Below are positions 16,237-60,380 of a stretch of 64,000 nt of DNA, in pieces (the first letter of the stretch is position 1; each line of letters begins with the position of its first letter). The DNA lies in NCBI GenBank assembly GCA_016197205.1, contig JACPWG010000096.1:29902-93901 (forward strand), written 5' to 3'. Under the pieces are notes generated by a model. It had not been told where the DNA came from and ran no database searches. It saw nothing but the letters and a program-made list of their open reading frames with translations. Origin of the DNA: Planctomycetota bacterium. GTDB lineage: Bacteria > Planctomycetota > MHYJ01 > WSZJ01 > JACPWG01. The position numbers and the translations under genes are program-made.

Positions 16237-18231
16237 TCAGCCCAGCGACTCCGCGGGCGGCGGTGCGGGCGGCTGCTCCGGCGCCGGCGCCGGGACGGTC
16301 CGCGGAAAAGTGACGACCGTGGTCGTGCCCCGCCCGGGCGTGGAGGTCATCGCGATCGTGCCGCGCAGCGACGCGGTGACGAGGTTGTGGACGATGGCGA
16401 GCCCGAGGCCCGTGCCTCCGCGGTCGCGGCCGGTGGTGAAGAAGGCCTCGAACACTCGGGGCAGGTCCTCGGGTGCGATGCCGCGGCCAAAGTCCCGCAC
16501 GCTCAGCGTGAACGTGGGCCGGAGGCCCGGGCCGGCGCCGGCGCCCGGGTCTTCGGGAGCTTCGCCCGCGGCCAGCTCGAGTTCCACGCGGCCCCCCGAG
16601 CCGTCCGGGTAGGCGTAGCGCTCGATGTTCGTGAGCAGGTTGAGAAGCACCTGCGAGAGGTGATGGGGAAAGCCTACCCATTGCCGTGCGTCGGCCGGCA
16701 GGCGATCCTGGATCTCGAGCTGGAGATGGGCCTTTCGGGCGCTCGGCGCGTACAAGGCGAGCGTATCCTCCACCGCGGAACGCAGGTCGACCGTTTCCAG
16801 CGAGTCCTGGGTTTCCTGGATGGAGAGCTTCTTGAAGCTCTGCACCAGGCGGCTGGCCCGGGCGAGGTTCCCTTGGATGAGCTGCGTCGCTTCCCGCAGC
16901 TCTTCGAGCAGGGCCGTCCCCTCCGCGTCCTTGCCGAGAGCCGCGAGCGGGCCCTCCCCCAGTCGCTCTTCGATGATGCTCGCGGCGGTCGTGACGATGC
17001 CGAGCGGCGTGTTGACCTCATGCGCGACGCCGGCGACCATTTGCGCCAGGGAGCGGTGCCGCTCCTTCTCCGCCTCCTCGAGCAGGCGCCGCAGTTTTTC
17101 TTTCGCGGCCAGTCCCTCGGCCATTTTGTTGAACGCGGCGGCGAGCTGGCCCAGTTCGTCGGTCGACCGCAGCTCCAGCCGATGGGCGAAGTCCCCGCCG
17201 GCGATCCTTTCCGTGCCGCGTACGAGGTCCTGGACCGGGGCCGACACGCGGCGGGCGATGCGTGAGCTGACGAGGAGGGAGAGGGGGATGGCGACCAGGG
17301 CGACGCCGAAGGTGATCCAACGAAGACGGCGCCGGAAATCCACCAGCCGCGCGAGCGAGAGGAAGAGCGCGTTCCAGACCGGCGCGCTGGAGCCGCCGCA
17401 GGGAAGCGGCGTGAGGACCGCGCGATAGGGGATGCCGCCGATCCGCTCTTCGAGCCGAAGCTCGGCGGAGGGTGAGGCGTCGCGGAGCCCCGTCTCGAGC
17501 GCGGCCGTCGCGGCGTCGCGCGTGCGGGCATCGAAGCTCGACGCCGCCAGGCGCCCCGCCACCACGTAAGCGACGGCGTCGTCGCCGCCCTGGAGCCGCT
17601 GCATGAGGCGGGTGAGGGCGTCCGTGATCTCGCTCGCGAGGAGGACCGTCCCCGCGAGACGGTCGCGGTCGAACATCGGGTAACCGGCCGCGACGAAAAG
17701 CCGGCCCTCGGCGACGAGGAGCGGGAGCTGTTGGTCCGGGTCTCCCTCGGCCAGCAGTCCTTGCACGAAAGCCGCTTCGGGGAGAGGCTCGGGCGCTGGG
17801 GTGGAGGGGGCGACCGGCCGCGGCTCGAGCTTGGCGGGAGCGCCCGGGGCGCGTTCCGGGTCGCGTTCGGAGAAATAGCGGGCGACGGGCCGGCCCTGCG
17901 CGTCCGTGATCGCGACGAAGTCCGCGGCGATGGCGTGGTACTCCATTTCGTAGAGGGCGACGCCGCCGGCCTTCTCGACCGGCTGCTCGCCGGACAGGCA
18001 CGCCTTGATGCGGGCGGAGTCCGCGAGCAGGGCGGAGGAGCGCAAGAGCTCCCGCCGAAGACGCTCGGTCGTGTCGTCGAAATTTCGCTTGCCGCGCTCG
18101 ACCTGCGCGGCGATCAGCTCTTCGACTTTGGCCGCGTAGAGGGCGTCGAGGGTCAGGAGCGTGCCGCCGAGGAGGACCGCCGCGGCCACGACGAAGAGGA
18201 GGAAGATCCGCGTCCGGAAGGTGAGCGTCAT
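16237..18231 (-). CDS. Sensor histidine kinase with two transmembrane segments, a periplasmic sensor domain, HAMP, HisKA and HATPase_c domains.
   Basis: ATG at 18231 (MTLTFRTRIFLLFVVAAAVLLGG). The H-box is VAHEVNTPLG. The N, G1 and G2 boxes (GGTGLGLAIV) are present. The 4-nt overlap ATGA links it to the upstream phosphoesterase gene. Confidence 0.8.
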   Translation of the reverse strand: MTLTFRTRIFLLFVVAAAVLLGGTLLTLDALYAAKVEELIAAQVERGKRNFDDTTERLRRELLRSSALLADSARIKACLSGEQPVEKAGGVALYEMEYHAIAADFVAITDAQGRPVARYFSERDPERAPGAPAKLEPRPVAPSTPAPEPLPEAAFVQGLLAEGDPDQQLPLLVAEGRLFVAAGYPMFDRDRLAGTVLLASEITDALTRLMQRLQGGDDAVAYVVAGRLAASSFDARTRDAATAALETGLRDASPSAELRLEERIGGIPYRAVLTPLPCGGSSAPVWNALFLSLARLVDFRRRLRWITFGVALVAIPLSLLVSSRIARRVSAPVQDLVRGTERIAGGDFAHRLELRSTDELGQLAAAFNKMAEGLAAKEKLRRLLEEAEKERHRSLAQMVAGVAHEVNTPLGIVTTAASIIEERLGEGPLAALGKDAEGTALLEELREATQLIQGNLARASRLVQSFKKLSIQETQDSLETVDLRSAVEDTLALYAPSARKAHLQLEIQDRLPADARQWVGFPHHLSQVLLNLLTNIERYAYPDGSGGRVELELAAGEAPEDPGAGAGPGLRPTFTLSVRDFGRGIAPEDLPRVFEAFFTTGRDRGGTGLGLAIVHNLVTASLRGTIAMTSTPGRGTTTVVTFPRTVPAPAPEQPPAPPPAESLG

Positions 18232-19007
18232 GAAGCGGCGTCCCCTCCGCCGGGCCTGGCGCGGGCGCGCGGGGGGAGCGGATTCAAGGTCTCCTGCTCC
18301 CAGTCCCCGTCCCCTCTGCGGAAGCACTCGATCCGGCGGGGGCCGTCCTCCCAGTCCACGGTCCAGACGATCTCCTGGCCGTAGGGCTCGCCGAGGGCGC
18401 CCGCGTTGAGGCAAGGCGTGTCGTCGACCCAGTCGAGGCCGAAGGCTTCGTGGATGTGGCCGCAAACGAACAGGCGTGGCCTGAGTCGTGCGATCCACTC
18501 GGAGAGTGCGCGGCTGCCGACCGGGACGCCGCGTTTCAAGCGGTCGATACGCGTCCCGAACGGGGGCGCATGGCAGAGAAAGACGTCCGGCGGGGGAGGG
18601 GCGTGGCCGAAAAGGCGGGAGAGCTTGCCCTGGGCCTGCTCGTCGGTCCATTCGTAAGGGAAATCGAAGAGGGCGGGACCCGCGCCCCCGAAGCCGGCGA
18701 GGTCAAGGTCGGCGACGCGTGTGACCTGGCCGTCGATGTTCGTGCCCGCGGCGTCGGCGGGCGGGTCGGTCAGGTCGTGGTTTCCAGGAACGAAAACGAC
18801 GGGGCAACCCAGCTTCGACTCGGTCCTGCGGAGGACGGCGCGGACGGAGGCGTCGTGCCCGCCCCGGTTGCGGCGCGTCATCGGGTCGAGCGCGACGTCG
18901 CCGACGAGAAGCGCGAGGTCGGGTCGCGGGGACGCCACGACGTCGAGGCAGGCTTCGAGGCGCTCGAGGTGGCCGTGGACATCGCCGAGGACGACGATGC
19001 GTTTCAT
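18228..19007 (-). CDS. Metallophosphoesterase (calcineurin-like).
   Basis: Motifs GDVHG, GD.A.D, GNHD and GH.H are present. ATG at 19007 (MKRIVVLGDVHGH). The in-frame ORF extension upstream of this ATG is unrelated sequence. Confidence 0.75.
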   Translation of the reverse strand: MKRIVVLGDVHGHLERLEACLDVVASPRPDLALLVGDVALDPMTRRNRGGHDASVRAVLRRTESKLGCPVVFVPGNHDLTDPPADAAGTNIDGQVTRVADLDLAGFGGAGPALFDFPYEWTDEQAQGKLSRLFGHAPPPPDVFLCHAPPFGTRIDRLKRGVPVGSRALSEWIARLRPRLFVCGHIHEAFGLDWVDDTPCLNAGALGEPYGQEIVWTVDWEDGPRRIECFRRGDGDWEQETLNPLPPRARARPGGGDAAS

Positions 19008-19255
19008 GGGGCGTGAGACTCCGACCAGGGGGTGACCGACGGCGGGGCGCGGTTGATCGTGCGGCGGCGCACATTCTGACAGCCGGGGCGGGAGGTTGTC
19101 AACTGCGGCGCGCGGGTCGAGTGCGAGATGGGAGGCTGGTGGTGGGAGGGGGCGAGGCGCGAGTTCGTGCGGGCCGGAGGCCCGCACCCCCAGGAGGGGG
19201 GTGACCAGACGGAAGGGCCGCGCGAGGTCCACGGGCGTCGATCCTCGAGCGCACC

Positions 19256-19287
19256 CCCTGGGGGCGCGGGCCTCCGGCCCGCGCGCA
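19256..19287. repeat. REP-like perfect palindrome CCTGGGGGCGCGGGCCTCCGGCCCGCGCG, copy 1 of 3.
   Basis: The 9-bp stem is GCGCGGGCC/GGCCCGCGC with loop TCC. It lies immediately left of the islet's direct repeat. Confidence 0.6.
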
Positions 19288-19304
19288 CGCCGCAACGTCA
19301 ACAC

Positions 19305-19482
19305 CCTCGCGCCCAGCCACTCCTTCGCCGCATCCAACAGGCTGTAGAACGCCGACACGACGACGAGCGTCAGCCCCGTCGACACGATCACTCCCCCGAT
19401 GACCGCCATGCACATGGGAACCCGGATTTCCCCGTCCGGCCCGAGCGCGAGCGCTCCCGGCACGGCCCCCGCCACGGTGGAA
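19305..19482 (-). pseudogene. Orphan fragment duplicating about 57 codons of the C-terminal region of the RND transporter gene 21390..24497. It corresponds to the displaced 3' end at an integration site.
   Basis: The translation AGAVPGALALGPDGEIRVPMCMAVIGGVIVSTGLTLVVVSAFYSLLDAAKEWLG is about 90% identical to residues near the RND C-terminus. The DNA is about 90% identical to 21459..21630. Confidence 0.7.
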
Positions 19483-19660
19483 TTTCCTTGGCTCCCGTTT
19501 CCCGGCTTGGGATACTACGCAGTCGGGAAGGCCTGGAGAGCGTACACGAACACCTCCCATGCGGACAGGGGCACCGCTGCGGACAGGGGGTACCGCGACG
19601 ATCCACGCAGTCACGGAACTCCATGCGACAATCCTTTTCCCGACTTGACAGGGGTGACCA

Positions 19661-20419
19661 ATGGCTAAGTGGTTTCGCACGAGGATACGGGAGGCCCGAG
19701 AACGCCTTGGACTGTCTCAGGCGGAAATGTGCCGGAGGTTCGGGGTCACCCAAAGCGCGATCTCGACCTGGGAAAATGGTACGTCGGAACCGCGGGACGA
19801 GCAGTACGAGAAGGTTGTCAGCTTGATCGAGAGTCTCGAGATTCAAGCGGAAGCAGACTCCAAAAGAGTCGTCGCAGACGAGCAACCCAGCGACCAGGAC
19901 GGCGAGCAGGACGTAGGTCAGGGACAGGTTGTTGATGGGAGGAGCAAGGGACCGACCAAAAGGGAATCAAAGATCGATGACGATGTCGTCCTTGGCCTCG
20001 TCCCTGCGGATGGGGCAGCCATCGGCAACCTCCGTCTGATAAAGGAGGTCGAGGCACGTGGCTGGAACTCGGACAAATTCTGGAGGGTTCGAGATCGGCT
20101 TCTCGATGCCGGGAGAATCATCAAAGGGCGAGGTCGCGGAGGTAGCGTCCGTCGACAGGTGATCGAGGCTGCTGAGCAAGCTACACCCTTGGCCGGGCCA
20201 CGGCTGCGCGTATCCGAGCAGTCTCTCTACTCCCCGTTGCTGAAGGTGCTTCAGGGCGAGTGGGTCAAGGACATGCAACTTGCGCCTCACCAGATCCATT
20301 TCGAGGAAACGGCGAAGCAGGGGAAAAAGGCGACAGGTGGTACGTGGACGCGGCCCGATATCACGGCTGTCAGCGTACGCTCGTATCCATATCTCCCAAA
20401 CAAATACCTCGACGTGTAG
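19661..20419 (+). CDS. Xre-type HTH protein forming the N-terminal 252 aa of an HTH/PD-(D/E)xK-like nuclease ORF. It terminates at an amber codon 20417-20419 that is in frame with the next ORF.
   Basis: The N-terminus has an HTH_3 pattern: LGLSQAEMCRRFGVTQSAISTWENG. The C-terminus contains ..TRPDITAV.. (a candidate PD motif). Local GC is lower, about 52-58%. Confidence 0.6.
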   Translation: MAKWFRTRIREARERLGLSQAEMCRRFGVTQSAISTWENGTSEPRDEQYEKVVSLIESLEIQAEADSKRVVADEQPSDQDGEQDVGQGQVVDGRSKGPTKRESKIDDDVVLGLVPADGAAIGNLRLIKEVEARGWNSDKFWRVRDRLLDAGRIIKGRGRGGSVRRQVIEAAEQATPLAGPRLRVSEQSLYSPLLKVLQGEWVKDMQLAPHQIHFEETAKQGKKATGGTWTRPDITAVSVRSYPYLPNKYLDV

Positions 20420-20437
20420 ACCTTTGAGGCCAAGACG

Positions 20438-20743
20438 GTGGACGGGCTCGACGTGACGGCGATCTTTGAAGCCGCAGCGCACGCCAGTCGTGCGACCAGA
20501 TCGTATGCTCTTTTGCAAGTACCCGAGAAGGACAGCGAGCACACGGAGGAAATCCTGAGTCGGTGCGTGTACGAAGCCACGCCCCTTCGCGTCGGGATGA
20601 TCACTTTCATCGATCCAGCGAACTATGCTACTTGGGACCCTCGTGTGGACGCACCGCGGGTCGACACGGATCCTGAACTCTTGATGCAATTCATCGCCAC
20701 ACTGACGGATGAGGCTCGAAAGCGCCTCTCGGAGTGGAAGTGA
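20438..20743 (+). CDS. In-frame continuation of 19661..20419, separated only by a TAG and 6 sense codons. It contains FEAK (a candidate (D/E)xK motif). It is either the C-terminal part of a nonsense-interrupted nuclease or an independent small ORF with a GTG start.
   Basis: Frame arithmetic: 20438-19661 = 777 = 3x259. The sequence reads ..KYLDV* TFEAKTVDGLDVTAIFEAAAHASR... It has the same codon bias as the upstream ORF. Confidence 0.45.
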   Translation: MDGLDVTAIFEAAAHASRATRSYALLQVPEKDSEHTEEILSRCVYEATPLRVGMITFIDPANYATWDPRVDAPRVDTDPELLMQFIATLTDEARKRLSEWK

Positions 20744-20943
20744 CGGGGCCGCACGACTGCGCTCTGCTTCTGGATCGGTGGACACGAACCTGTGCTCCGA
20801 CTTCGACAAGTGAGTCGCGTGCCAGCCGATCACAGCGGATCGTGCCACGCGCCGCCGCTCATGCAGACCAGTCCACTGCATCAGCGCCTTGCCCGGCAGG
20901 CGAGCCATGCGATCGGATCACGCGAACATCGGAGGACGGACGC

Positions 20944-21144
20944 ATGAACATCGAAATCGAGCGCGAGTCGGACGGGAGGTGGATCGCGGAAGTGCCGGAT
21001 CTGCCGGGGGTGATGGCGTACGGGCGGACTCGAAAGCAAGCGATAGCGAAGGCTGAGTCGTTGGCGCTGCGGGTGATCGCGGATCGCCTCGATCATGGGG
21101 AGGCGGTTCCGGAGTTGCACGAGCTCTTCGCGGTGTCCGCATGA
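20944..21144 (+). CDS. hicB: HicB-family antitoxin.
   Basis: MNIEIERESDGRWIAEVPDLPGVMAYGRTRKQAIAKAESLALRVI is HicB/UPF0150-like. GGAGGA lies 8 nt upstream of the start. A 4-nt overlap links it to hicA. Confidence 0.7.
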   Translation: MNIEIERESDGRWIAEVPDLPGVMAYGRTRKQAIAKAESLALRVIADRLDHGEAVPELHELFAVSA

Positions 21145-21356
21145 GTCGCTGGCCGTCGGCCAAGGCAAAGCTGGTTCTTGCCGCGCTCTTCCGCATCGGT
21201 TGGGTCGTCAAGCGCCAAAGCGCGGGATCGCACCGCGTGCTCGCTCGACCGGGCTGGTTGGATTACGTCTTCGCCTTTCACGACCGAAATGAAATTGGCC
21301 CCCGGATGCTCGCCCGGATCGCGAAGCGCACCGGCCTGCGCCCGAAGGATCTCTAG
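21141..21356 (+). CDS. hicA: HicA-family mRNA interferase toxin.
   Basis: MSRWPSAKAKLVLAALFRIGWVVKRQSAGSHRVLARPGW is a YcfA/HicA-like fold. Confidence 0.7.
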   Translation: MSRWPSAKAKLVLAALFRIGWVVKRQSAGSHRVLARPGWLDYVFAFHDRNEIGPRMLARIAKRTGLRPKDL

Positions 21357-21389
21357 GGTCGGCCGAATTTCCATTTTTGGGACCGTGCC

Positions 21390-24300
21390 CTACCTGATCG
21401 CTGATCCAGTGTCCACAGGTTCGCGCAAGGTCATTTCTGGCGTCCTGCTCACGACCCCGCCCAGCCACTCCTTTGCCGCATCCAGCAGGCTGTAGAACGC
21501 CGGCACGACGACGAGCGTCAGCAGCGTCGACACGACCATCCCGCCGATCACGGCCATGCACATGGGCACCCGGATCTCCCCGCCCGGCCCGAGCGCCAGC
21601 GCCCCCGGCACGGCCCCCGCCACGGTCGAAAGCGACGTCATCAGGATCGGACGCAGCCGCACCGGGCAGGCCTCGAGCAGCGCCTCGTCCCGCCCCTTGC
21701 CGGCCTCCCGGAGCTGGTTCGTGTAGTCCACCAGCAGGATCGAGTTTTTCTTCGCGATCCCCATCAAGAGGAGAATGCCGATCATGCTGTAGATGTTGAG
21801 CGAGGCGCCCGCCAGCCACAGCGCGACCAGCGCGCCCGTGACGCTGAAGGGGAGCGCGAGGAGGATCGTGAGCGGGTGCGCGAAGCTGTTGAACTGCGAG
21901 GCGAGGATCATGTACGCGACGAGGATGCCCAGGCCGAGGGCGAAGAGGAGGCTCTCGAAACTCTCCCGAAACGTCTGGGCGCTGCCGGACACCACCAGGC
22001 GATAGCCTTCGGGCACCACCTCGCGTCCGATCCGCTCGACCGCGGCCAGCGCGTCCGCCTGCGACTTTCCGGGCGCGACGTTGCCGAAAACGCCGATCGC
22101 CCGCTCCCGCCCGCGTCGTTGAATCACCTGGAGCGTCGGCTCTTCTTTCACCGTCACGACGTCCGAGAGGCGGATGAGCGCGCCCTCGCGATTCCGCACC
22201 GCGAGTCGACGCAGGTCCTCCGGACGGAAGCGTTGCGCGCGCAGCAGCCGCACGCGGACGTCGTACCGTCGGCCGCGCGACTTGAAGCGACCTGCGCGGA
22301 CGCCCCCCACCAGCGCATTCACGGTCGTGCCGATGGAGGCCATGCTTACGCCGAGGTCCGCCGCCCGCTTCCGATCGGGGAGGACCTTCGCCTCGGGCTG
22401 CCCGACCAGGTAGTCCGTGTCGACATCCACGCACAGGCCCGTCTCCTTCATCCGGTCCATGACCTCTCGGGAGACCTCCGCCAGCTTGTCCCAGTCCGCC
22501 CCGCGGATCGAGAACTCCACGGGATAGCCGCGCTGCGCGCTGAAGCCCGTCTGCGACAAGTCCTGAATGCCGACCCTCACGCCGGGCATGCGGTTGAGCT
22601 GGGTCCGGAACCGCGCCATCAGGTCCTGCATCGTCGCCTGCCGCCCGCGCTTCGGCTTGAACGTCGCGAAGAGGATCGCGGTGTTCACGTCGCCGCCGCC
22701 GAAACCGCCGACCGAGGAGAAGTACCGGTCCAGCTCGGGCTGCGCCATGGCGTAGGCTTCGCACCGGCGGACCAGCTCGTCCGTCGCCTCGATGGACGTG
22801 CCGACCGGGGTCTGGATCCGCGCGAGGAAGCGGCTCTGGTCCTGCGAGGGGACGAATTCCCTCGGCAGGAAAAGCACGGCGACGCAGGAGGAAACGAAGA
22901 GCGCCGTCGCGAGGAGCAGCGTCGCCAGGCGCCACCGGAGGCACCACCGGAGCACCCCGCCGTAGAAGCGCGCCAGCGCCCCGAACGCGTGGTCGGCCAA
23001 GGCCCCGATGCGCGTGGTGCGTGCCCCGACGTCCAGGAACTGCGCGCAACGCGAGGGCGTGAGGGTGAGGGCCTCCAGGAGCGAGAGCGCGACGGCGACC
23101 GAGAGCGTCACGCCGAACTGGAAAAAAAAGACTCCGATGATGCCCTTCATGAAGGCGACCGGGAGGAAGATCGCCAGGATCGCGGCGGTGGCCGCGATCG
23201 CCGCGAACGCGATCTGCCCTGTCCCCTCGGAGGACGCGCGGACGCGGTCCTTGCCCGACTGCGCGTGCCGGACGATGTTCTCCATCACCATGATCGCGTC
23301 ATCGACCACGATGCCGACGGAAAGGGACAGCGCGAGCAGGGAGAAGGTGTTGAGCGTGAACCCGAGGAAGTACATCGCGGCGAAGGCGCCGATGATGGAG
23401 GTCGGGATCGCGAGGAGGATGTTGAGGGTCGAGGTGAGCGACCCGAGGAAGAGCCAGCAGACGAAAGCCGTGAGAAGGATGGAGAGGACGAGCGTGAACT
23501 CGATCTCGTGAATCGCCTCCTCGACGAAGGCGGTGGCGTCGAACACGACCGACAGCTCGAGGTCTTTCGGGAGCTGTTTCCGGAGCTCCGCAACGCGGGC
23601 CTTCACGGCCTGGCCGACCGCGACGGCGTTGGCCCCGCGCTGCTTCTTGATCCCCATGCCCTGGGCGGGGAGGCCCATGGAGCGCGCGATCCGGCGCACG
23701 TCCTCGAAGCCGTCCTGGACGAGCGCGACGTCCCGCAAGAGGACCGGCCGTCCGCCCCGCTCCGCTACGACGATCGAGCGGAGACCCTCCAGGGAAAAGG
23801 CCTCCCCCTCGACGCGGACGTTCACTTCCCGGACCGAGGTCTCGATGCGACCGGCCGGCACTTCCACGTGCTCGCGGGCAAGCGCCGCGACCACGTCCTC
23901 GACCGTGAGCCTGTACGTCTCCAGCCCGTCGAGGTCAAGCCATACGCGGACGTTTCGGTCGAGGTAGCCGCCGAGCATGATCTCCGCCACGCCGGGAACG
24001 GTCTGGAGCTTCTCCTTGAGGGTGAAGCGCACGTAATCGGCCAAGTCCTGCGGCGGACGAGCGCCCGCGAGCGCCACCCACATGATGGGCTGGTCCTCGG
24101 GATTCGTCTTCGTGACCACCGGCGGATCCAGGTCGCGCGGGAGTCGCCGCTGCGCCTGGGCAATCTTGGTTTGCACCTCCTGAAGGGCCTGGTCGATGTT
24201 TCGGCCCAGGTTGAATTCGATCGTGATCGTTGCGGCACCGTTCTTCGAACTGGAGGAAACCTCGCGGACCCCGTCGACCGTCATCACGGCGTCCTCGATG

Positions 24301-24497
24301 AGATCGACGACGTCCGTCTCCATGATTTCGGGGGCCGCCCCTTCCAGCGTGACGGCGACGGTGACGACCGGGAAGTCGACGTCCGGCATCTGGCTCACGC
24401 CCAGGCGTGCGAACCCGATCCCCCCGAAGAGGAGGAGCGAGAGCATGAGCATCCAGGCGAAGACGGGATTCTTGATGCTGAGGTCGGAGAGAAACAT
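21390..24497 (-). CDS. RND efflux transporter permease subunit (AcrB/CzcA superfamily), 1035 aa.
   Basis: The canonical start MFLSDLSIKNPVFAWMLMLS is present. There are 12 transmembrane segments and two large periplasmic loops. Confidence 0.9.
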   Translation of the reverse strand: MFLSDLSIKNPVFAWMLMLSLLLFGGIGFARLGVSQMPDVDFPVVTVAVTLEGAAPEIMETDVVDLIEDAVMTVDGVREVSSSSKNGAATITIEFNLGRNIDQALQEVQTKIAQAQRRLPRDLDPPVVTKTNPEDQPIMWVALAGARPPQDLADYVRFTLKEKLQTVPGVAEIMLGGYLDRNVRVWLDLDGLETYRLTVEDVVAALAREHVEVPAGRIETSVREVNVRVEGEAFSLEGLRSIVVAERGGRPVLLRDVALVQDGFEDVRRIARSMGLPAQGMGIKKQRGANAVAVGQAVKARVAELRKQLPKDLELSVVFDATAFVEEAIHEIEFTLVLSILLTAFVCWLFLGSLTSTLNILLAIPTSIIGAFAAMYFLGFTLNTFSLLALSLSVGIVVDDAIMVMENIVRHAQSGKDRVRASSEGTGQIAFAAIAATAAILAIFLPVAFMKGIIGVFFFQFGVTLSVAVALSLLEALTLTPSRCAQFLDVGARTTRIGALADHAFGALARFYGGVLRWCLRWRLATLLLATALFVSSCVAVLFLPREFVPSQDQSRFLARIQTPVGTSIEATDELVRRCEAYAMAQPELDRYFSSVGGFGGGDVNTAILFATFKPKRGRQATMQDLMARFRTQLNRMPGVRVGIQDLSQTGFSAQRGYPVEFSIRGADWDKLAEVSREVMDRMKETGLCVDVDTDYLVGQPEAKVLPDRKRAADLGVSMASIGTTVNALVGGVRAGRFKSRGRRYDVRVRLLRAQRFRPEDLRRLAVRNREGALIRLSDVVTVKEEPTLQVIQRRGRERAIGVFGNVAPGKSQADALAAVERIGREVVPEGYRLVVSGSAQTFRESFESLLFALGLGILVAYMILASQFNSFAHPLTILLALPFSVTGALVALWLAGASLNIYSMIGILLLMGIAKKNSILLVDYTNQLREAGKGRDEALLEACPVRLRPILMTSLSTVAGAVPGALALGPGGEIRVPMCMAVIGGMVVSTLLTLVVVPAFYSLLDAAKEWLGGVVSRTPEMTLREPVDTGSAIR
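21459..21630. repeat. Direct repeat (the intragenic copy inside the RND gene) of the 172-bp sequence also found at 19311..19482.
   Basis: About 90% nucleotide identity. Confidence 0.65.
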
Positions 24498-24760
24498 GCT
24501 GTGGATTTGAGATTTGAGAATGGAGAATTCAGATTTGGGCAGGGTTCAAATCGGCAGCGTGAGGGAAACACGCTTTCGTGTCCGGACGTAGGGGCGGGCC
24601 TTGTGCCCGCCCTGTTGGCGACACCGCGCAGTCCAACGGCTTGCGGCCAGTCGTGGGCGCCCACAAGGGGCGCCCCTACGGCGGGTGGCCGGCGGCAGGC
24701 TGTAACGAAAGCCGGCCGCGGTCGGCTCGCCGTCAATTCTCAAATCCCAAATCCCAAATC
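24498..24760. repeat. MITE-like insert filling the MFP-RND intergenic space. It has inverted GATTTGAGATTTGAG... ends and an internal GC-rich palindrome GGGCGCCCACAAGGGGCGCCCCTAC. A related copy lies at about 54930..55100.
   Basis: The ends at 24504-24540 and 24740-24760 are inverted repeats of the (C)AAATCCCAAATC type. The internal roughly 100 bp are shared with 54940-55060. Confidence 0.5.
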
Positions 24761-26050
24761 TCAATTCCCCTTTTTGGCGTCCTCCTCCTCGGTGATCGTC
24801 TCCACCGGGGCGCCGTCGCGGAGGACGGAGGCGCCGCGGATGACCAGCAGTTCGCCGGCGGCGACGCCGGAGAGGACCTCGACCTCTCCCTCGCGCGTGT
24901 GCAGCCCCAGGCGCAACTCGCGTGCGCGCGCGGTCCCCTGGTCCGCGACGTAGGCCAGGAAGCCGCGGTCCGTCGGTTGCACGGCGGACTCGGGGACGAC
25001 GACCGCCTGTTGTCGCGTCTCCAGGGTGATCCGGACCTTGGCGAAGGACCCGGGCTTGAGCTGCGCGTCGTGATTTTCCATCCGCGCCAGGCACTCCACC
25101 GTGCGCGTGGCGGCGTCGGCGACCTGCCCGACGTGGAAGAGCGTCGCCGGAAATTCGCGCTCGCCGGCGGTGCGCACGGAAAAGACGACGGTCGGCGCGT
25201 GGGAGCCGGCGACCGCCGCCGCTTCCGTTTCGTTCAACTGGAAGCGCAGGCGCACGGACTCCAGGTTCACGATCGTCGCGACGACGGTCCCGATCGTGAC
25301 GTATTGTCCCTGGCCGACGCGACGCGCGTTGATGACGCCCGGAATCGGCGCGCGGATCACGGCGTCGCGTGCGTCCAGTTCCGCAAGGCCGAGCGCGGCC
25401 TTGGCCTCCGCGGCGGCGGCGCGCAGCTTCTCCACCTGCGCGTGCACCATGGTCTGGGCCTCGTCCGCGCCCGCCTTCGCCCGCTCCACGCGCGTCCGGT
25501 ACGTGCTCAGCTCTTCCTCCGTGACCCAGCCCGGATCCTTCTCGCGCACCCGGTCCCGCTTCGCAAGGGCGTCCTCCGCCTCTTTCAGGTCGGCGGCTGC
25601 CTTGTTCACGAGGGCGTTGGCCTTCCCCTCCGCCTCGCGGGCCTCGGCCTCGGCCCGGTCCAGCGCCGCGCGGGCGCGGTCCACGGCCAGGCCGTAGCGC
25701 GCGGCGTTGATTTCCGCGAGCGCGTCCCCGGCCTGGACGCGGTCCCCCTCGGCGAACCGGATCGCGCCGATGACCCCTGCCACGCGGGCCGGGATCTGGA
25801 CCTCCTCGTCCGCCTCCAGTCCGCCGACCGTTTCCACCACGTACACGACGGGCTGGGTTTTTACCTGCGCGGCGACTACGCGGAAGCCCTTCTTCGGACC
25901 GCCGGCCCCCTTGCCCCCGCCGCCCGGCCCGCCCTCCTTTCCGCAACCTCCGAGGAGGAGCGCAGGGAGGAGCAGCGCGACGGCCAAGGGCCGTCCGCTT
26001 TCCGGCGAGCGTGTCGAGAGACCCCTGCTACGCCCACGGTCACGGTTCAT
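24761..26050 (-). CDS. RND efflux periplasmic adaptor (membrane fusion protein), a lipoprotein.
   Basis: ATG at 26050 (MNRDRGRS...). The lipobox is LLLGGC. Coiled-coil and beta-barrel regions follow. It overlaps the upstream OMF gene by 4 nt. Confidence 0.8.
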   Translation of the reverse strand: MNRDRGRSRGLSTRSPESGRPLAVALLLPALLLGGCGKEGGPGGGGKGAGGPKKGFRVVAAQVKTQPVVYVVETVGGLEADEEVQIPARVAGVIGAIRFAEGDRVQAGDALAEINAARYGLAVDRARAALDRAEAEAREAEGKANALVNKAAADLKEAEDALAKRDRVREKDPGWVTEEELSTYRTRVERAKAGADEAQTMVHAQVEKLRAAAAEAKAALGLAELDARDAVIRAPIPGVINARRVGQGQYVTIGTVVATIVNLESVRLRFQLNETEAAAVAGSHAPTVVFSVRTAGEREFPATLFHVGQVADAATRTVECLARMENHDAQLKPGSFAKVRITLETRQQAVVVPESAVQPTDRGFLAYVADQGTARARELRLGLHTREGEVEVLSGVAAGELLVIRGASVLRDGAPVETITEEEDAKKGN

Positions 26051-27531
26051 TTCCACGTCGTCTCCGGAATGCGACCCAGGGCCGCGTCCAACGCCGCCTC
26101 GTCGAGCAGCCGCTGGCAGCGCTGTCGTTCCAGGTCGAGCCGCGCGGCCTGCAACTGATTCTGCGCCGCCAGCACCTCGAGGTTGGACGCGAGCCCCTGC
26201 CGGTACTCCTCCTGGCTGAGGCGAAAATTCTCCTCGGCGAGACGCGCACTCGCCTCGAACTGCGCATACAGCCGGGCGCTCGAACGCAGCCCCAGCCACG
26301 TCTCGCGCACTTCGCCGGCGACCTGTCGCAGCAGCGCCGCGTGCCGAAGGCGGGCCTGGCGCAGCGCGGACTGCGCTTCGCGGATCCGTGCGCGTGCGGC
26401 CCCTCCCTCGAAGAGCGGGTACTCCAGGCCCAGGGTCACGTCCCAGTCGGTGGCCTGCTGCACCTCGGAGAAGCCGTCCCGGTGGACGTACCAGTTGGCG
26501 GTGACGTCGGCGGACGGCCACAAGTCCCCTTGCTGGACCGAGACCGCCTCCTCCGCGGCCGCGATTTCGCGGGCGCGCGCGCGGACGTCCGGCCGCCGTT
26601 CCGTCGCCGTCGCGAGGAGCGGGGCCGGGTCCTCGGGCGCGGGCCGCTCCGCCGACTCGTCCGCGAGCGGTTGCGTGACTTCCCGGCCCACGACCACGCC
26701 CAGCCGCGTGCGGGCGATGGCGGCGTCGTTGCGCGCCCGCTCGAGCGCGGCCTCGTCCTGCGCGAGCTGCGTCTGGACGGACAGCAGCTCCGTCTTTCGC
26801 GCGAGGCCGCTTTCGCGCCGCGCCTGGACTTCGCGCGCACGCTCGCCGCCGAGCCCGACCGCCGCCTCCCGGGTCTTCACCTGGGCCTCGGCGAGCAGCA
26901 CCGAAAAAAAATCCTGGGCGACCAGCAGGAACACGAGCCGCTCCTCCTCCCGCAGGGCTTCGCGCGCCGCCTCGGACAGGCGGTCCGCCTGCCGGAGGCC
27001 GGCGAATTCCTTGAAGCCTTTGAAAAGCGGCTGCCGGAGCTGCACGCTCGCCTCGCGCCGGTCCGGCTCCACGGAGAAGCCCGAACCTCCGCCTCCGAAG
27101 CCGGCGAGGTCGCCCCCGCCTCCTCCGCCGGCCTTGAACTCGTCCTGCCGGAAATAGCTGCCGTGTACCGTGACCCGCGGGAGGACGCCGGCGATCGCCT
27201 GGTCCCGCCGGAGTACCGTCTGGAGCCACGACTCGCCGGCGAGACCCAGGCGCGCGTTTCTTGCGATCGCCGAGCGATAGCAGTCCGCGAGAGAGAGGGG
27301 ACCGGGCCCGTCCAAGGGGTCGGCGGGCGCCGGCGCCGCAACGGTCCGTTCCGCCTCGGGGTTCGGCGTCGCGGCCTCGGGCGCGGCGGTGGCGGCCGGG
27401 GCGACCGAAGGCGTCCCCGCGACGGCGGGAGGGACGTCCTTTAGCAAGGCCGCGCGATAGTGCTCGGGCTCGCGCGGGCGGCCGTCGGCGCAGCCTGCCC
27501 CCGCGGCCAGGAGTGCCAGCGCCGCGAGCAC
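26047..27531 (-). CDS. Outer-membrane efflux protein (TolC/OMF family). The start is uncertain.
   Basis: Two OEP repeats are present. A GTG start at 27531 would give MLAALALLAAGAGC. The 5' part of the 609-aa ORF is not protein-like. The stop overlaps the MFP start. Confidence 0.65.
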   Translation of the reverse strand: MLAALALLAAGAGCADGRPREPEHYRAALLKDVPPAVAGTPSVAPAATAAPEAATPNPEAERTVAAPAPADPLDGPGPLSLADCYRSAIARNARLGLAGESWLQTVLRRDQAIAGVLPRVTVHGSYFRQDEFKAGGGGGGDLAGFGGGGSGFSVEPDRREASVQLRQPLFKGFKEFAGLRQADRLSEAAREALREEERLVFLLVAQDFFSVLLAEAQVKTREAAVGLGGERAREVQARRESGLARKTELLSVQTQLAQDEAALERARNDAAIARTRLGVVVGREVTQPLADESAERPAPEDPAPLLATATERRPDVRARAREIAAAEEAVSVQQGDLWPSADVTANWYVHRDGFSEVQQATDWDVTLGLEYPLFEGGAARARIREAQSALRQARLRHAALLRQVAGEVRETWLGLRSSARLYAQFEASARLAEENFRLSQEEYRQGLASNLEVLAAQNQLQAARLDLERQRCQRLLDEAALDAALGRIPETTWK

Positions 27532-27724
27532 CCAGCGGGCGGACCTCGTCCCTGGGGACGCAGGCCCGACGGCGCCGGAACGGCCCTCCGAAACCCAGGC
27601 GTGGGTCTGCGCAGCTCCGGGGGTTGACGGCAGACAAGCCACTCGTCCCGCTCCCGCGCGCTGCGGTCGGGAGGGGCGCCACCCGGCAGCCCCCTCCGCG
27701 GACAGCGATGCGTGAGGCACGGGT

Positions 27725-28957
27725 TCACGAACCCCAGATGCGGAAGGGCAAATAGGTGAGGGCGGCGACGGTCGCCGCTGCGGGAATGGTGAGGACCCAG
27801 GCCCAGACGACGCGCGCGGCGACGCCCCAGCGCACGGCGGAGAGGCGCCGGGCGCTGCCCACGCCCACGATCGCACCGGTGATCGTGTGGGTGGTGCTTA
27901 CGGGAATCCCGAAATGCGACATGAGCAGAATGGTCACGCCTCCGCCGGTCTCGGCGCAGAAGCCGCCGAAGGGCGCGAGCTTCGTGATCTTGGACCCCAT
28001 CGTCTTCACGATCCGCCAGCCGCCGAAATAGGTGCCGAAGCTGATGGCCCCATGGCACGCGAGGATGATCCACCAGGCGAGGTGGTCGTCGATCTTGAGC
28101 GACTGTCGGCCGTCGGCCGCGGTCTCCAGCGAGCCGACCAGGACCACGTCCTTGTCGACCTTCCCCTTGGTCTTCGCCTCCGCCTCCGCCGAGGGAAGGA
28201 TCGGGTAGCGGTTCCCGTCCTTGGTCACCAGGACCAGGCTTCGCTCTGGGCCGCTCTGGAGATGGCCGGGGATTTCCTGGATGCCCGCGGCGTGCGTGAG
28301 ATAGCCCATGCCGGACGCGACCAGGAGCGCGGAGATGATGCCCATGGTCTTCTGCGCGTCATTCGAGCCGTGCGAGTAGCTGTAGACGGCCGCCGAGAGG
28401 AGCTGCAGCCGGCGGAACCAGGTGTCCACGACGCCCGGCCGCTGCGACCAGCAGAGGCGACCGGTCACCGCCATGAAAAGGAGCCCGAGCCCGAACCCGA
28501 GCAGGGGCGACACCACGATGTAGATCGAGATGCCGAGAATGCCCTTCCAGACGAGCCAGTTCGGGCCCGGCGTGAGCCAGAGGAGCGACCCGAGGCCGGC
28601 CTTGGCGATCGCCGCGCCCGCGAGCCCGCCGATGAGCGCGTGGGAGGAGCTGGAGGGGAGGCCGTAGTACCAGGTGATGAGGTTCCAGACGATCGCGCCG
28701 ACGAGCGCGGCGAAGATCAGGTTGGGCGTGATGACGGAGGGGTCGACGATCCCCTTGCCGATCGTCGAAGCGACCAGGGTCCCCGTGCCGACGGCCGCGA
28801 TGAAATTGAAGAAGGCCGCCCAGACGACCGCCGCCCTCGGGGGCAGCACCCGGGTCGAGACCACCGTCGCGATCGAGTTCGCGGCATCGTGGAAGCCGTT
28901 GATGAAGTCGAACCCGAGGGCGACGAGGACGACGAAGAGGACGTAGAAGTCAGGCAT
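27725..28957 (-). CDS. pit: Inorganic phosphate transporter of the PiT family.
   Basis: The signatures GFHDAANSIA and GSNDAQKTMG are both present. Confidence 0.85.
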   Translation of the reverse strand: MPDFYVLFVVLVALGFDFINGFHDAANSIATVVSTRVLPPRAAVVWAAFFNFIAAVGTGTLVASTIGKGIVDPSVITPNLIFAALVGAIVWNLITWYYGLPSSSSHALIGGLAGAAIAKAGLGSLLWLTPGPNWLVWKGILGISIYIVVSPLLGFGLGLLFMAVTGRLCWSQRPGVVDTWFRRLQLLSAAVYSYSHGSNDAQKTMGIISALLVASGMGYLTHAAGIQEIPGHLQSGPERSLVLVTKDGNRYPILPSAEAEAKTKGKVDKDVVLVGSLETAADGRQSLKIDDHLAWWIILACHGAISFGTYFGGWRIVKTMGSKITKLAPFGGFCAETGGGVTILLMSHFGIPVSTTHTITGAIVGVGSARRLSAVRWGVAARVVWAWVLTIPAAATVAALTYLPFRIWGS

Positions 28958-46783: not shown

Positions 46784-46867
46784 GAGGGAGAATCGTCACG
46801 AGCTGTTCATGGGGACGACCGGAGAGCAGAAGCTCTACACAACAATTTCCGAATTCCCGTCACGATT

Positions 46868-46898
46868 CCTGGGGGCGCGGGCCTCCGGCCCGCGCGAA
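46868..46898. repeat. REP-like palindrome, copy 2, lying between the Ser/Thr kinase and the NACHT gene.
   Basis: It is identical to the 31-mer at 51427..51457 in inverted orientation. Confidence 0.6.
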
Positions 46899-46998
46899 CT
46901 GGCACTTGTCCTCCACTTCCCCGCAACCGCGGGCCCAAAGGTGACCAGTGTTCGTCAACGCGGTACTCGCCACCGTGGCGCCCGGAGCCGAGCCCGGC

Positions 46999-49318: not shown

Positions 49319-49978
49319 TCACCGCCGCCGCGATAGCCGAAACACTCCCACGAATTCGCCGTCGTCGCTGCGGACCTTGCGCAACGCCTCAGCGATCTGG
49401 CGCAGGTCCCGCGCATGCCGCGCCTCCCCGTGAAGCGCCGGCCGCGCCCGCAGTTGTGCTCGCAACTCACGCGCCTGCCTCCGGAGATCCCGGTAGGCGC
49501 GCCATCGCTCGGCCCGGCGGCTGGCGAGCACCTCCCGGTTCAAGTCGAGCCCGTCCGGAGCGACCGTCTCCTTTCCTGCCCCGTCAATGCCGACGAGCGT
49601 GATGAGCCCCATGCCACCCCGAACCTCCCGAGCGCGCAGGTGGATGGCGGGGTCGAAGCCCGCAGCGCAGGGGTCGAGGGGATGACGACATGCGTCCTTG
49701 CTCCTCCCGTTCATCACTTCCTTGATTTGGTTACACCCGTGACAGGACAGCCGGAGATTTTGCCAGTCGAATTCATGCTCTGGCCAAAGTCCCACGCCCT
49801 TGGGCAGGTAGTGTTCCCGCTCCGGGGAGTCCGTTTCGCTCTCGCAATACGCGCACTTGTTCCGGAATATCCCCAGGAGCCACCGCAGCACAGGCTTCTC
49901 GGGGTAGTCGTCCATCCTTCCACTCGCCAGTACCGCGAGGGCCTCCGCGGGTGGCGGTCCCAGCGTTACTGGCCTCAT
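49319..49978 (-). CDS. HNH endonuclease of the Septu PtuB-like family (associated with AAA_21-type ATPases).
   Basis: The motifs CAYCE...EHYLPKG...W.NLRLSCHGCNQIK are present. The ATGA overlap links it to the upstream ATPase. Confidence 0.7.
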   Translation of the reverse strand: MRPVTLGPPPAEALAVLASGRMDDYPEKPVLRWLLGIFRNKCAYCESETDSPEREHYLPKGVGLWPEHEFDWQNLRLSCHGCNQIKEVMNGRSKDACRHPLDPCAAGFDPAIHLRAREVRGGMGLITLVGIDGAGKETVAPDGLDLNREVLASRRAERWRAYRDLRRQARELRAQLRARPALHGEARHARDLRQIAEALRKVRSDDGEFVGVFRLSRRR

Positions 49979-51306
49979 GGTGTCCCCGCGCCACTCATCG
50001 GAGGGAGCTGCTCCGGCGGGCTGAGAGTCTCAAGCTGCCCCTCCCACTCGTCGATCCGCCGCTGCTGCTCCGCCGTCGGGGTGGCGTCCCCGATCTCCGC
50101 CAGGAGTGCGGACAGCTTCCCGAAGACCTCCATCACCTTCACGGGCAGGTCCGACACGCCGAAGAGGTCGGTGATGATGCGGCTGATGGTCTTCGCCAGC
50201 GGCGCCCCGGTGTCCGAGCGCACGGTTTCACAGGTGACGCCGTCCTTCGCACGAACCAACCGATGGACGCGATACGAGCGGTTCAGGCCGACCAGCCCCG
50301 TGAGGACCAGTGGCGAGTGCGTCGCCACGATGAACTGCGCGTTGGGCAACAAGCTGGAGAGCCGGGGAATGACCTGCCGTTGCCAGCTCGGGTGAAGGTG
50401 CGCGTCGAGCTCGTCGATCAGGACGATGGCCGGCGCCTCGAAGGCCTCCTCCCGAGGCTGAGGCTGGGAGTAGAGGACCCCCTCCGCGACGCGCAAGGCC
50501 AGCGCCAGGATCGCCTGTTCCCCATCCGAGAGCATGTGGAAGGGGAGTTCCGCGTGCGGGCCGCGGATCATTACGTGTCCGACCTGCGTGTGGAACGGGA
50601 GCAATTCGTACCCAGGGAGTAGCCTTCGAATCGCGGCTTGATAGGCAGTGAATTCGCGCAGGCACTCCGACCGCCCTTCCTTATCGTCGATCACTTGGCG
50701 CATGTATGCCGCGACCACGGAGCTCAGTGGGCCCGCAGCGCTGTCGGTACCGTTGAGCGCGCGATTGTAATTCTCCGATCTCACCGCGACGAGGCGTGGC
50801 GGCAGCACGTATTTCGCCTCCATCCGACCTGTCTGTAATCCTGCGGGCCGGATCGACGGCACGAAAACGAAGGGTGTGGTCGCTTGGGCGCCCTCGGCCG
50901 GCTCTAGCGGACCCGCTCGGGAGGATGTGCGCGTGCTGTCGAAGCCGTACTCCGAGAGGAGAGTCGTTTCGCTTCCCTGCGCCAAGGTCTCGCGCATCGT
51001 GAACCACGCGCTCTTGGCCCCTCCGGCCATCATGGTACTCACCTGGTGGCCCGTAACGTCGGGCAGGTCCTCGAGGCGACCCTCGAGCCGCGCGAAGACC
51101 TCGGCTGTGGTCATGCCCGCCCGCATGAGCGATTCAGGGTACTGCTGGCTCGCAAGGCCGCGGTTCAGATAGATCGCGAGCAAGCGCAGGATCGTGCTCT
51201 TCCCCGACCCGTTGTCACCGATGAGGACGTTCCAGGCGGGGTCAAGATCGAGGGTTGCGCGACCGACGCACTTGAGGTTGGTGAGTTCCAGGCTGGCGAA
51301 GCGCAA
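49975..51306 (-). CDS. ATPase of the AAA_21/ABC-type (Septu PtuA-like).
   Basis: Walker A is GDNGSGKST. LSDGEQ and the Walker B IVLIDELDAHLHP are present. The H-loop is ATHSP. The likely TTG start at 51306 gives MRFASLELTNLKCV, and GGAGAG lies 5 nt upstream. A GTG at 51384 is an alternative start. Confidence 0.7.
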   Translation of the reverse strand: MRFASLELTNLKCVGRATLDLDPAWNVLIGDNGSGKSTILRLLAIYLNRGLASQQYPESLMRAGMTTAEVFARLEGRLEDLPDVTGHQVSTMMAGGAKSAWFTMRETLAQGSETTLLSEYGFDSTRTSSRAGPLEPAEGAQATTPFVFVPSIRPAGLQTGRMEAKYVLPPRLVAVRSENYNRALNGTDSAAGPLSSVVAAYMRQVIDDKEGRSECLREFTAYQAAIRRLLPGYELLPFHTQVGHVMIRGPHAELPFHMLSDGEQAILALALRVAEGVLYSQPQPREEAFEAPAIVLIDELDAHLHPSWQRQVIPRLSSLLPNAQFIVATHSPLVLTGLVGLNRSYRVHRLVRAKDGVTCETVRSDTGAPLAKTISRIITDLFGVSDLPVKVMEVFGKLSALLAEIGDATPTAEQQRRIDEWEGQLETLSPPEQLPPMSGAGTP

Positions 51307-60330: not shown

Positions 60331-60380
60331 GGCAAACGCTCCGGTCTCATCCAACCTGGCGTGGCGTGCGCATGCGTATT

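Follow-up and report, generated by a model that had tools for sequence, protein, structure and literature searches.

The window, by which we mean the whole 64-kb stretch of DNA analysed here, contains an intact gene for an HAE1-type RND efflux permease (21390..24497, minus strand; 1035 aa, matching ACR_tran over residues 4-1005 with E=4e-288), and next to its 3' end a short islet of lower-GC DNA bounded by a direct repeat. The repeat copies (19310-19482 and 21458-21630) are spaced 2148 nt apart and are 90% identical, with 17 differences and no indels; the repeat reported in the preliminary description is thus confirmed, with a length of 173 nt in place of 172 bp. The right copy (21458..21630, minus strand) is part of the working RND gene, encodes TM12 to ...AAKEWLG, and retains the residues that do not vary across 77-78 of 78 relatives. 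The left copy (19310..19482, minus strand) is an orphaned, displaced RND 3' fragment corresponding to ACR_tran positions 975-1020, and has Gly-to-Asp and Pro-to-Ser substitutions at such invariant positions, a sign of relaxed constraint. The orphan's VIVSTGL and the MVVST(F/L)(M/L)TL pattern of the working copy are both found in other RND proteins; VIVSTGL is a natural allele there, and the two copies differ in the manner of alleles. Ten of the 17 differences fall at third codon positions, an excess that loses significance (P=0.21) when purifying selection acting on the working copy is taken into account. Six are G/C transversions, and relative to the working copy the orphan has eight GC-to-AT and three AT-to-GC changes. 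GC3 is host-like in both the right copy (54/56, 0.96) and the left (51/56, 0.91), values with probabilities of P=7e-7 and P=1e-4 respectively under a cargo GC3 of 0.70, and the copies resemble the RND genes found in high-GC genomes and not cargo-type DNA.

The cargo between the copies (19483..21457, no strand assigned; 1,975 bp) consists of two independent gene modules and unique spacers. Its GC content is 0.610 compared with 0.688 for the whole window, the lowest of any stretch of 1,975-bp length in the window, which bears out the earlier observation of ~1.98 kb of lower-GC DNA at this position; its GC3 ranges from 0.67 to 0.78. At both borders (19482/3 and 21457/8) RND sequence gives way abruptly to low-GC DNA, and the end of the repeat coincides with the end of RND conservation. 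At the DNA level only 19620-20752 (the nuclease gene) and 20945-21355 (hicBA) are similar to other loci. A tandem direct repeat, TGCGGACAGGGG(C/GT)ACCGC x2 (19560..19596, plus strand), was read directly from the sequence in the unique 137-bp stretch that separates the left joint from the nuclease-gene module, and could be a candidate operator. Logan contig L001, from another assembly of raw reads (SRR12113391), reproduces both repeats, both junctions and the amber codon discussed below base for base; its reads are probably the same as those behind the MAG. Because two assemblies show the same arrangement, a single assembler cannot have produced it as an artefact.

The final 22 sense codons and TAG stop of the RND gene (21390-21457) come from islet DNA and carry GVVSRTPEMTLREPVDTGSAIR, so that the unique tail described previously is present, its 23 codons being 22 sense codons plus the stop. 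RND homology to all relatives ends at about residue 1006-1012, and the relatives' own tails extend a median of ~19 aa past this point. GC3 is 0.91 in the RND gene and a cargo-like 0.70 in the new tail (16/23 codons), and a count of 15/22 or fewer has P=0.002 under the host value of 0.91. The lower GC of the insert and the tail GC3 of 0.70 uphold the original proposal that foreign DNA displaced the RND 3' end and supplied a replacement tail. No relatives closer than 63-72% in amino acid sequence, the level of the best RND match, were found in any collection searched.

The module adjoining the RND gene is a hicB-hicA cassette, convergent with it and with only 33 nt between the RND and hicA stop codons. 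The hicB product (20944..21144, plus strand; 66 aa) matches HicB_lk_antitox (E=9.7e-7) and phrog_497, HicB-like, and is a short antitoxin that lacks a DNA-binding domain; hicA (21141..21356, plus strand; 71 aa) overlaps hicB by 4 nt, matches the full HicA_toxin profile (E=5.4e-10), and appears intact. More than 5,000 HicA homologues are found, the best 120 of which are 72-86% identical and come from many phyla, and the overlapping 66-aa/71-aa cassette recurs in unrelated contexts. Judging from its intact domains it is probably an active example of a promiscuous type II toxin-antitoxin cassette.

The other module (19661..20743, plus strand) encodes Xre-type helix-turn-helix and winged-helix domains followed by a PD-(D/E)xK nuclease, and is now either a pseudogene or the gene for a truncated 252-aa HTH protein; the two modules agree with the cargo of hicBA and an Xre-HTH gene first proposed. 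The HTH open reading frame (19661-20419) ends in an amber codon (TAG, 20417..20419, plus strand), beyond which the frame is open for 107 sense codons, and not 102 as first counted, to 20743. Both the PD and ExK motifs recognised earlier are present with the TAG between them, although their spacing is 23 residues and not ~30. The TAG arises by a G-to-A change from TGG and stands in place of a Trp codon, three residues ahead of the catalytic ExK. The nuclease is a member of a widespread family covered by no domain library; the family is solitary, with no conserved partner across 58 loci, which does not support the label of toxin.

The change from TGG to TAG is a nonsense mutation of the ordinary kind. 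The 15 closest homologues have TGG at this codon and the others encode I, V or T; of 84 homologous loci, this one alone carries a stop at the position (0/83 of the others covering it). The gene keeps 51 of 52 family-conserved positions, and intact relatives show 0-1 violations. Since the rest of the gene looks intact the break is evidently recent, or possibly a population variant, in keeping with the earlier option of a freshly inactivated gene. The truncated gene would yield at most a 252-aa DNA-binding stub, from which we infer the absence of nuclease activity. It is rather unlikely that the TAG reflects an error of sequencing or consensus calling, or a variant carried by a minority of the population, in an organism with an intact and active nuclease gene. 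Such a reading would suit a gene that, the stop aside, cannot be told from intact homologues in its conserved positions and open downstream codons, and the two assemblies probably go back to one set of reads; nonetheless the TAG is given by two different assemblers, nonsense decay occurs elsewhere in the family (three internal stops in locus L097 and one in L141), and copy-specific changes downstream of the stop (E-to-V, R-to-Y, R-to-P, V-to-R) are somewhat more radical than those upstream. The preliminary description had also raised programmed amber read-through or suppression that gates production of the full-length nuclease, to which an open frame past a stop lying between the catalytic motifs lends itself. 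The stop, however, is restricted to one of the 84 loci with Trp in its nearest kin, TAG is the stop codon of 10 of 25 confident host genes, among them the RND pump gene and hicA, and no suppressor tRNA or Rfam element was found in the window or region; control by read-through is therefore very unlikely indeed.

Outside the left repeat copy lies an inverted pair of a REP-like host repeat (19163..19288, no strand assigned), with a 35-nt unit and hairpin core GCGGGCCTCCGGCCCGC. The window has four exact copies of the core, copies of the repeat besides this pair lie at 46867-46903 and 51425-51465, and the pair has an RNA fold of -126.8 kcal/mol (z=-6.8); the Logan contig breaks within it, at 19256. 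The palindrome arms (19163-19197 and 19254-19288) end 21 nt outside the left repeat copy and ~195 nt short of the actual joint between islet and host at 19482/19483. This distance and the dispersed nature of the repeat speak against the suggestion that the palindrome sits exactly at the left junction as an insertion hot spot, and the pair occupies the former RND-phosphoesterase intergenic region. The metallophosphoesterase gene (18228..19004, minus strand) likely starts at the Met at 19004, giving a product of 259 aa, as also called for the Logan contig. A longer frame (18228-19475), annotated in GenBank as 415 aa, spans the REP pair and orphan, but the Metallophos domain begins at residue 159 of this frame, and the internal Met (MKRIVVLGDVHGH) is preceded by a promoter-like TTGACA-18-CAGAAT site (19102-19073). 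The in-frame fusion of orphan and phosphoesterase noted previously thus exists as an open frame, although it is probably an open-frame artefact and most likely not a real protein. Neither the REP pair nor the extended fusion frame belongs to the insertion event; they are features of the host.

No recombinase was found among the 30 window ORFs scanned against Pfam, and no further ORF lies between the repeats beyond the three cargo genes, consistent with the earlier statement that the islet has no integrase. The nuclease and hicBA modules occur separately elsewhere: hicBA is absent from 81 nuclease-family loci, the nuclease gene is absent from four hicBA loci, and an RND tail lies next to the gene in none of these 85. 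The closest nuclease homologues (L002 and L087) have mobile-element-like surroundings, with a candidate primase (weak, below-threshold Pfam matches to Toprim and a CHC2 zinc-finger), an excisionase-like MerR/HTH_17 protein, and an ORF6N protein, and homologue P0005 has a Phage_integrase (tyrosine-integrase) gene directly next to it.

We lean towards the view that a small, integrase-less islet was acquired horizontally, displaced the RND 3' end, and is now decaying. The incoming DNA would have carried lower-GC cargo attached to a diverged 3' segment of an RND gene, recombining with the resident gene through RND homology either by a single crossover of a circular fragment or by a homologous event at one end and an illegitimate join at the other, with the geometry of the 'C-terminal displacement' in rhs and cdiA loci. 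The pump gene would thereby have been rebuilt with its conserved TM12 followed by a fortuitous 22-codon tail read from cargo, and the old 3' fragment pushed 2.1 kb downstream as an orphan. We infer that hicBA is the only working cargo, whose addiction would oppose loss of the islet by recombination between the 173-nt repeats; the nuclease is truncated by the single recent nonsense change. The islet is an ordinary relic of horizontal gene transfer and not a new regulatory device.

A doubtful though possible alternative is that the islet is the remnant of a site-specific integrative element, or a non-autonomous, CIME-like one, that used a tyrosine or serine recombinase and carried an RND-mimic attP, and whose integrase was later lost along with most of the cargo, or is supplied in trans, the repeats representing attL and attR. 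Direct repeats, a reconstituted target and a displaced orphan are the classical geometry of 3'-end integration, and the primase, excisionase-like, ORF6N and integrase genes near nuclease homologues would fit such an origin. Against it, besides the missing recombinase, the putative element-borne copy has a host-like GC3 of 0.96 and not the 0.67-0.78 of the cargo, the new tail resembles accidental read-through and not a maintained mimic, the related loci offer no second instance of the element or of its association with an RND tail, and deletion of all but two small modules with both ends kept is unparsimonious. The host-like codon usage of both repeats, the lack of an integrase, and the separate occurrence of the cargo modules elsewhere, never next to an RND tail, lead us to favour recombination over an integrase remnant. 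It is improbable that the cargo was instead inserted by illegitimate repair (end-joining or replication slippage) that duplicated 173 bp of the resident gene in situ, with the 10% divergence arising later and mostly in the orphan. The host-like composition of both copies, the abrupt joints at both cargo borders, the lower GC and invariant-site substitutions of the orphan, and a codon-position pattern compatible with duplication followed by divergence would all accord with this, but three neighbouring amino acid differences reproduce the natural VIVSTGL allele, which random decay is unlikely to do, and the G/C transversions look like long-term coding divergence. Moreover, ~7-10% neutral divergence implies an old event, yet the nuclease gene has one lesion only.

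The recombination account has its nearest counterpart in the C-terminal displacement of rhs and cdiA loci, where orphan toxin-immunity modules were reportedly described by Jackson et al. (2009) and Poole et al. (2011). PMC5361080 presents the same displacement logic for Vibrio cholerae T6SS effectors. In these systems, as here, a conserved gene gains a new 3' end and downstream cargo, and the old 3' end is kept downstream as an orphan that opens with a conserved core of ~100-200 bp, giving a diverged direct repeat. Here, however, the target is an RND transporter where those systems have a polymorphic toxin, the new 'tip' amounts to 22 residues of meaningless tail, and a toxin-antitoxin pair with a nuclease gene takes the place of a toxin domain and its immunity gene as cargo, from a single event with no array. 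PMC5704250 reviews islands and integrative elements in the 3' ends of tRNA, tmRNA and protein genes, including integrase-less, cis-mobilizable CIMEs. These share with the islet the direct repeats around compositionally deviant DNA and the reconstituted target 3' end, and CIMEs also its absence of internal mobility genes; the islet differs in its repeats, which are host-like and not cargo-like in composition, in the lack of a defined short att core, and in that neither a nearby integrase nor a second copy or relative of the element was found. Site-specific integration into a gene's 3' end gives the same geometry as the account we favour.

Individual components also have familiar counterparts. 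The REP pair resembles REP/BIME-type palindromes in its GC-rich hairpin unit (33-40 nt in these) and several intergenic copies, here as an inverted pair, although it has no demonstrable link to the insertion. The hicBA genes match HicAB systems (PF07927 HicA_toxin and PF15919 HicB_lk_antitox) above Pfam thresholds and share the gene overlap and the HicA GSH motif, but hicB precedes hicA, and its short product does without the C-terminal DNA-binding domain usual in HicB. The nuclease is like the solitary restriction-endonuclease-fold enzymes that bear DNA-binding domains at the N-terminus, a group represented by Mrr, by MspJI-type (type IV) enzymes, and by the nuclease domains of PaqCI, FokI and LlaBIII: one or more winged-helix domains precede PD-(D/E)xK, and there is no methyltransferase or other conserved partner.

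The islet at 19483-21457 comprises 1,975 bp with a GC content of 0.610, lower than that of any other equally long stretch of the 64 kb, the window as a whole having a GC content of about 69%. It is flanked by the two copies of a 173-nt direct repeat (19310-19482 and 21458-21630), which repeat finding and pairwise alignment show to be 90% identical, with 17 substitutions, no indels and a spacing of 2148 nt, confirming that this is a low-GC islet with a flanking duplication. The right copy lies within the RND permease gene, and the left copy is a displaced (orphan) fragment of the 3' end of an RND gene. The window sequence from 19256 through the entire RND gene is also present in Logan contig L001 (5.3 kb, run SRR12113391), which covers both repeat copies, both joints (19482/19483 and 21457/21458) and the amber codon discussed below; as the two are identical, the islet structure is real in the reads and not the product of one assembler, although these reads are probably the source of the metagenome-assembled genome (MAG) itself. 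In GenBank the region is part of a 162-kb contig whose MAG carries the label 'Planctomycetes bacterium', and is listed with the proteins MBI3270633 to MBI3270638.

There are only three open reading frames between the repeat copies, and no convincing terminator or Rfam motif was found within the islet. The cargo ends have no terminal inverted repeats, and a transposon is therefore unlikely. Two of the three genes are a co-oriented hicB (20944-21144, + strand; PF15919, 29.4 bits versus a cut-off of 27) and hicA (21141-21356, + strand; PF07927, E=5.4e-10, 39.7 bits versus a cut-off of 27, profile positions 4-58 of 58) that overlap by 4 nt. By their domain matches, a HicA domain (dsRBD-like fold) with an adjacent HicB, they belong to the HicAB type II toxin-antitoxin systems. 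The HicA is of a very widespread 71-aa subfamily with more than 5,000 homologues, the best 120 of which span many phyla at 72-86% identity, and the same hicBA cassette occurs in four unrelated contigs, with the gene always paired with a 66-aa HicB. Similarity of the cargo DNA to other loci is confined to two segments, 19620-20752 (the third gene, encoding a nuclease, plus ~40 bp upstream) and 20945-21355 (hicBA exactly). Among the 81 nuclease-family and four hicBA loci fetched, none contains both modules together or either one beside an RND tail, and none is a second copy of the islet, as they share only the individual genes with it. The cargo is a mosaic. A tandem direct repeat, TGCGGACAGGGG(C/GT)ACCGC x2, at 19560-19596 (+ strand) may serve as an operator or as a site for recombinase binding; it falls within the 137 bp of unique sequence that separate the left joint from the nuclease-gene module.

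The nuclease gene (19661-20743, + strand) begins with a segment encoding an Xre-type helix-turn-helix (HTH_3, 2.8e-11), ends at a TAG at 20417-20419, and has 107 more open codons beyond it. When the part of the gene beyond the HTH is used as a query, with the stop taken as a sense codon, 207 homologues are found that run uninterrupted (...NKYLD(V/I)WTFE(A/V)K...) across the stop position; full-length homologues are ~255 aa, or ~355-359 aa with the Xre HTH. The preliminary description guessed at a PD-(D/E)xK nuclease, and this guess was correct. An alignment of 86 sequences shows no variation at E185, P231-D232, E255, K257, E269 and H273, and the window copy encodes the first five of these residues, with the ExK downstream of the stop. 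An AlphaFold2 model (pLDDT 85) of P0003, a homologue 78% identical to the window protein, shows an Xre HTH followed by a disordered linker, then a winged helix and lastly an alpha-beta-beta-beta-alpha-beta domain, and places the invariant residues at canonical sites (at the N-terminus of helix 1, where strand 2 starts and where strand 3 ends). The family thus has both the core fold and the E ... (P)D ... (D/E)xK signature of the PD-(D/E)xK superfamily.

The family contains 518 representatives (at 50% identity) at E<1e-30 and 2,588 at E<1e-3. Beyond the Xre HTH there is no named match in Pfam, NCBIfam, PADLOC, PHROGs or PDB sequences, Foldseek against the PDB gives weak matches only (MspJI, E=5e-3), and no recurrent neighbor is seen in 58 loci. 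The viral collections yield two matches, one near a prohead protease, which are too few to regard the family as phage-borne. In the search of representatives, four proteins of 580-765 aa (P0246, P0247, P0250 and P0252) match the profile in 5-6 stretches, and in P0250 and P0252 the winged-helix region scores best, suggesting a tandem array of such domains ahead of the nuclease domain.

The in-frame TAG had been read either as a fresh inactivation or as a means of control by read-through or suppression, and it is the former that is well supported. A stop is present at this position in only one of 84 covering loci, the window's own; in the 15 closest the codon is TGG (Trp), and in the others it encodes Ile, Val or Thr, so the TAG is a single G-to-A nonsense change. 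TAG terminates 10 of 25 confident window genes, the RND gene and hicA among them, there is no tRNA gene in the window, and there is no Rfam match in the region; programmed read-through is therefore very unlikely, there being neither conservation of the stop nor a suppressor tRNA, a recoding signal or a reassignment of TAG. The gene otherwise looks healthy, keeping 51 of the 52 family positions conserved at ≥90% and equaling its intact relatives in this, which points to a recent inactivation or to a variant within the population. Since the stop falls within strand 3, three residues ahead of the ExK, any product is predicted to be catalytically dead. This gene has decayed elsewhere too: two further family loci carry internal stops, three in L097 and one in L141. 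The hicBA addiction module is probably the sole working part of the islet.

The RND permease gene (21390-24497, - strand; ACR_tran, E=4e-288) is complete at 1035 aa. The target gene has thus been reconstituted intact with flanking direct repeats, a pattern that processes other than site-specific recombination can also produce. GC3 is 0.67-0.78 in the cargo and the new 22-codon RND tail, and the tail appears to be an accidental read-through into the cargo. The repeat copies have GC3 values of 0.96 and 0.91, like the host, and therefore both come from RND genes of high-GC genomes. Ten of their 17 differences are at third codon positions, and both the VIVSTGL of the orphan and the pattern of the working copy occur in other RND proteins, such that the copies seem to differ as alleles do; RND conservation ends exactly at the end of the repeat. 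The orphan also has Gly-to-Asp and Pro-to-Ser changes where 77-78 of 78 relatives share the same residue, a mark of relaxed constraint. A search of genome contigs with the RND protein returned 80 loci, the best 64% identical, in none of which a phosphoesterase gene lies downstream, and the best match to the RND C-terminus in a set of 5.8 billion proteins is 72% identical, with neither the new nor the old tail in any match. The closest RND relatives in the collections searched are thus 63-72% identical at the amino acid level and do not share the phosphoesterase synteny. Between the permease gene and an outer-membrane factor gene (OEP, 26047-27876) is an open reading frame (24546-25946, - strand) at the position expected for a periplasmic adaptor; it has no Pfam match at E≤1e-3 and may be called in the wrong frame or from the wrong start, or encode a divergent adaptor.

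At 19163-19288, in the former spacer between the RND and phosphoesterase genes, is a REP-like inverted pair with a very stable predicted fold (z=-6.8), which the preliminary description placed at the junction as a possible insertion hot spot. It lies 21 nt past the orphan copy and ~195 nt from the novel joint. Its 17-nt core, GCGGGCCTCCGGCCCGC, has four exact copies in the 64-kb window (0.59 expected), and further intergenic units of 33-40 nt that are 90-97% identical to its arms occur at 46867-46903 and 51425-51465. Several dispersed intergenic palindromic copies within the 64 kb surveyed are as expected of REP/BIME elements, and the pair is made up of a host unit and does not mark the insertion point. 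Contig L001 breaks within one of its arms, at 19256. The pair and the orphan fragment are both included in a 415-aa frame (18228-19475, - strand; MBI3270633.1), in which the orphan had been thought to be fused to the phosphoesterase. In this frame the Metallophos match starts at residue 159, right after an internal Met with a promoter-like site upstream, and it is far more likely that the product is a 259-aa protein starting at 19004; the 415-aa fusion is best taken for an artefact, a frame that stays open in 70%-GC DNA.

As to how the islet arrived, there is no recombinase between the repeats or among the 30 window open reading frames scanned, in agreement with the earlier report that an integrase is absent; the sole mobile-element enzyme among the 30 is an IS66 remnant at 57 kb. 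Together with the host-like GC3 of both copies, their allele-like differences and the coincidence of the repeat end with the end of RND conservation, this leads us to favor recombination with incoming DNA as the route. DNA carrying a diverged RND 3' segment and the cargo would have recombined with the resident gene, either through a Campbell-type crossover or through illegitimate recombination aided by homology, resulting in C-terminal displacement. A decayed integrase-borne element is a serious rival, as it would leave an identical geometry. The nearest nuclease homologues lie near excisionase-like and ORF6N proteins and a candidate primase (weak Pfam matches, below threshold), and one homologue adjoins an integrase gene, but the islet has neither an integrase nor att sites matching a known one by which to class it as a site-specific element or CIME.

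Less probably, the repeat arose by duplication in situ followed by divergence. The distribution of differences over codon positions is suggestive of two alleles under a naive null (P=0.027), but is compatible with such a duplication under a null that allows for selection on the working copy (P=0.21). In a reading that we consider very improbable as a whole, the family would be a widespread class of solitary nucleases, selfish or defensive and not yet described, that make the very break through which their gene, along with hitch-hiking cargo, enters conserved genes via homology-directed repair, in a homing-like and integrase-free manner, and that are silenced by nonsense mutation once fixed. 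Overall, the islet is a decaying, unexceptional product of horizontal transfer. The observations of the preliminary description thus hold, and its interpretation does so in part: the nuclease and its inactivation are upheld, and the read-through, the REP hot spot and the phosphoesterase fusion are not.

A second patch of mobile and defense debris lies further right. A chimeric open reading frame at 56932-57759 (+ strand) has a weak HSDR_N match (the N-terminus of type I restriction HsdR) followed directly by the final ~30 residues of an IS66 transposase and the IS66 C-terminal element, and looks like debris from an IS66 insertion into a restriction gene. It is followed by a toxin-antitoxin-like pair (59013-59731, - strand), in which a DUF5615/PIN_10 gene (59013-59318) overlaps a DUF433 gene (59285-59731), and by a fragment (59968-60390, - strand) of an AAA_15/AAA_21 (AbiEii/OLD-like) ATPase gene with the N-terminal Walker A region alone. 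Elsewhere, a full-length AAA_15/AAA_21/SMC_N ATPase (469 aa) and a 219-aa protein without a Pfam match are encoded at 49319-51384 (- strand) and may constitute a two-gene defense system; the REP-like unit at 51425-51465 is directly upstream. A 292-aa predicted secreted protein with ~8 His/Cys-rich repeats (HVH..CGH(Y/C)(W/F)DGHGW...) and no Pfam match is encoded at 53920-54798 (- strand).

The chief value of this analysis is a corrected annotation, given that in the GenBank record the nuclease pseudogene is split and the phosphoesterase is too long, at 415 aa. Only the nuclease family is a lead of broader interest: it has thousands of members in bacteria of soil, sediment and groundwater, with an active site that is fully conserved in the sequences aligned, and is a candidate for an uncharacterized solitary enzyme of restriction or defense type. 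In its solitary architecture, with a DNA-binding domain and a nuclease domain and no methyltransferase, it resembles the type IV (Mrr/MspJI-like) restriction enzymes, but it does not belong by sequence to any named catalytic family, e.g. Mrr_cat. The islet would also be a clean example of C-terminal displacement befalling an ordinary housekeeping or transport gene, with the essential part of the gene kept intact. Such displacement is best known from polymorphic-toxin loci, and the process proposed here for the RND gene would be the same as that at rhs and cdiA loci.
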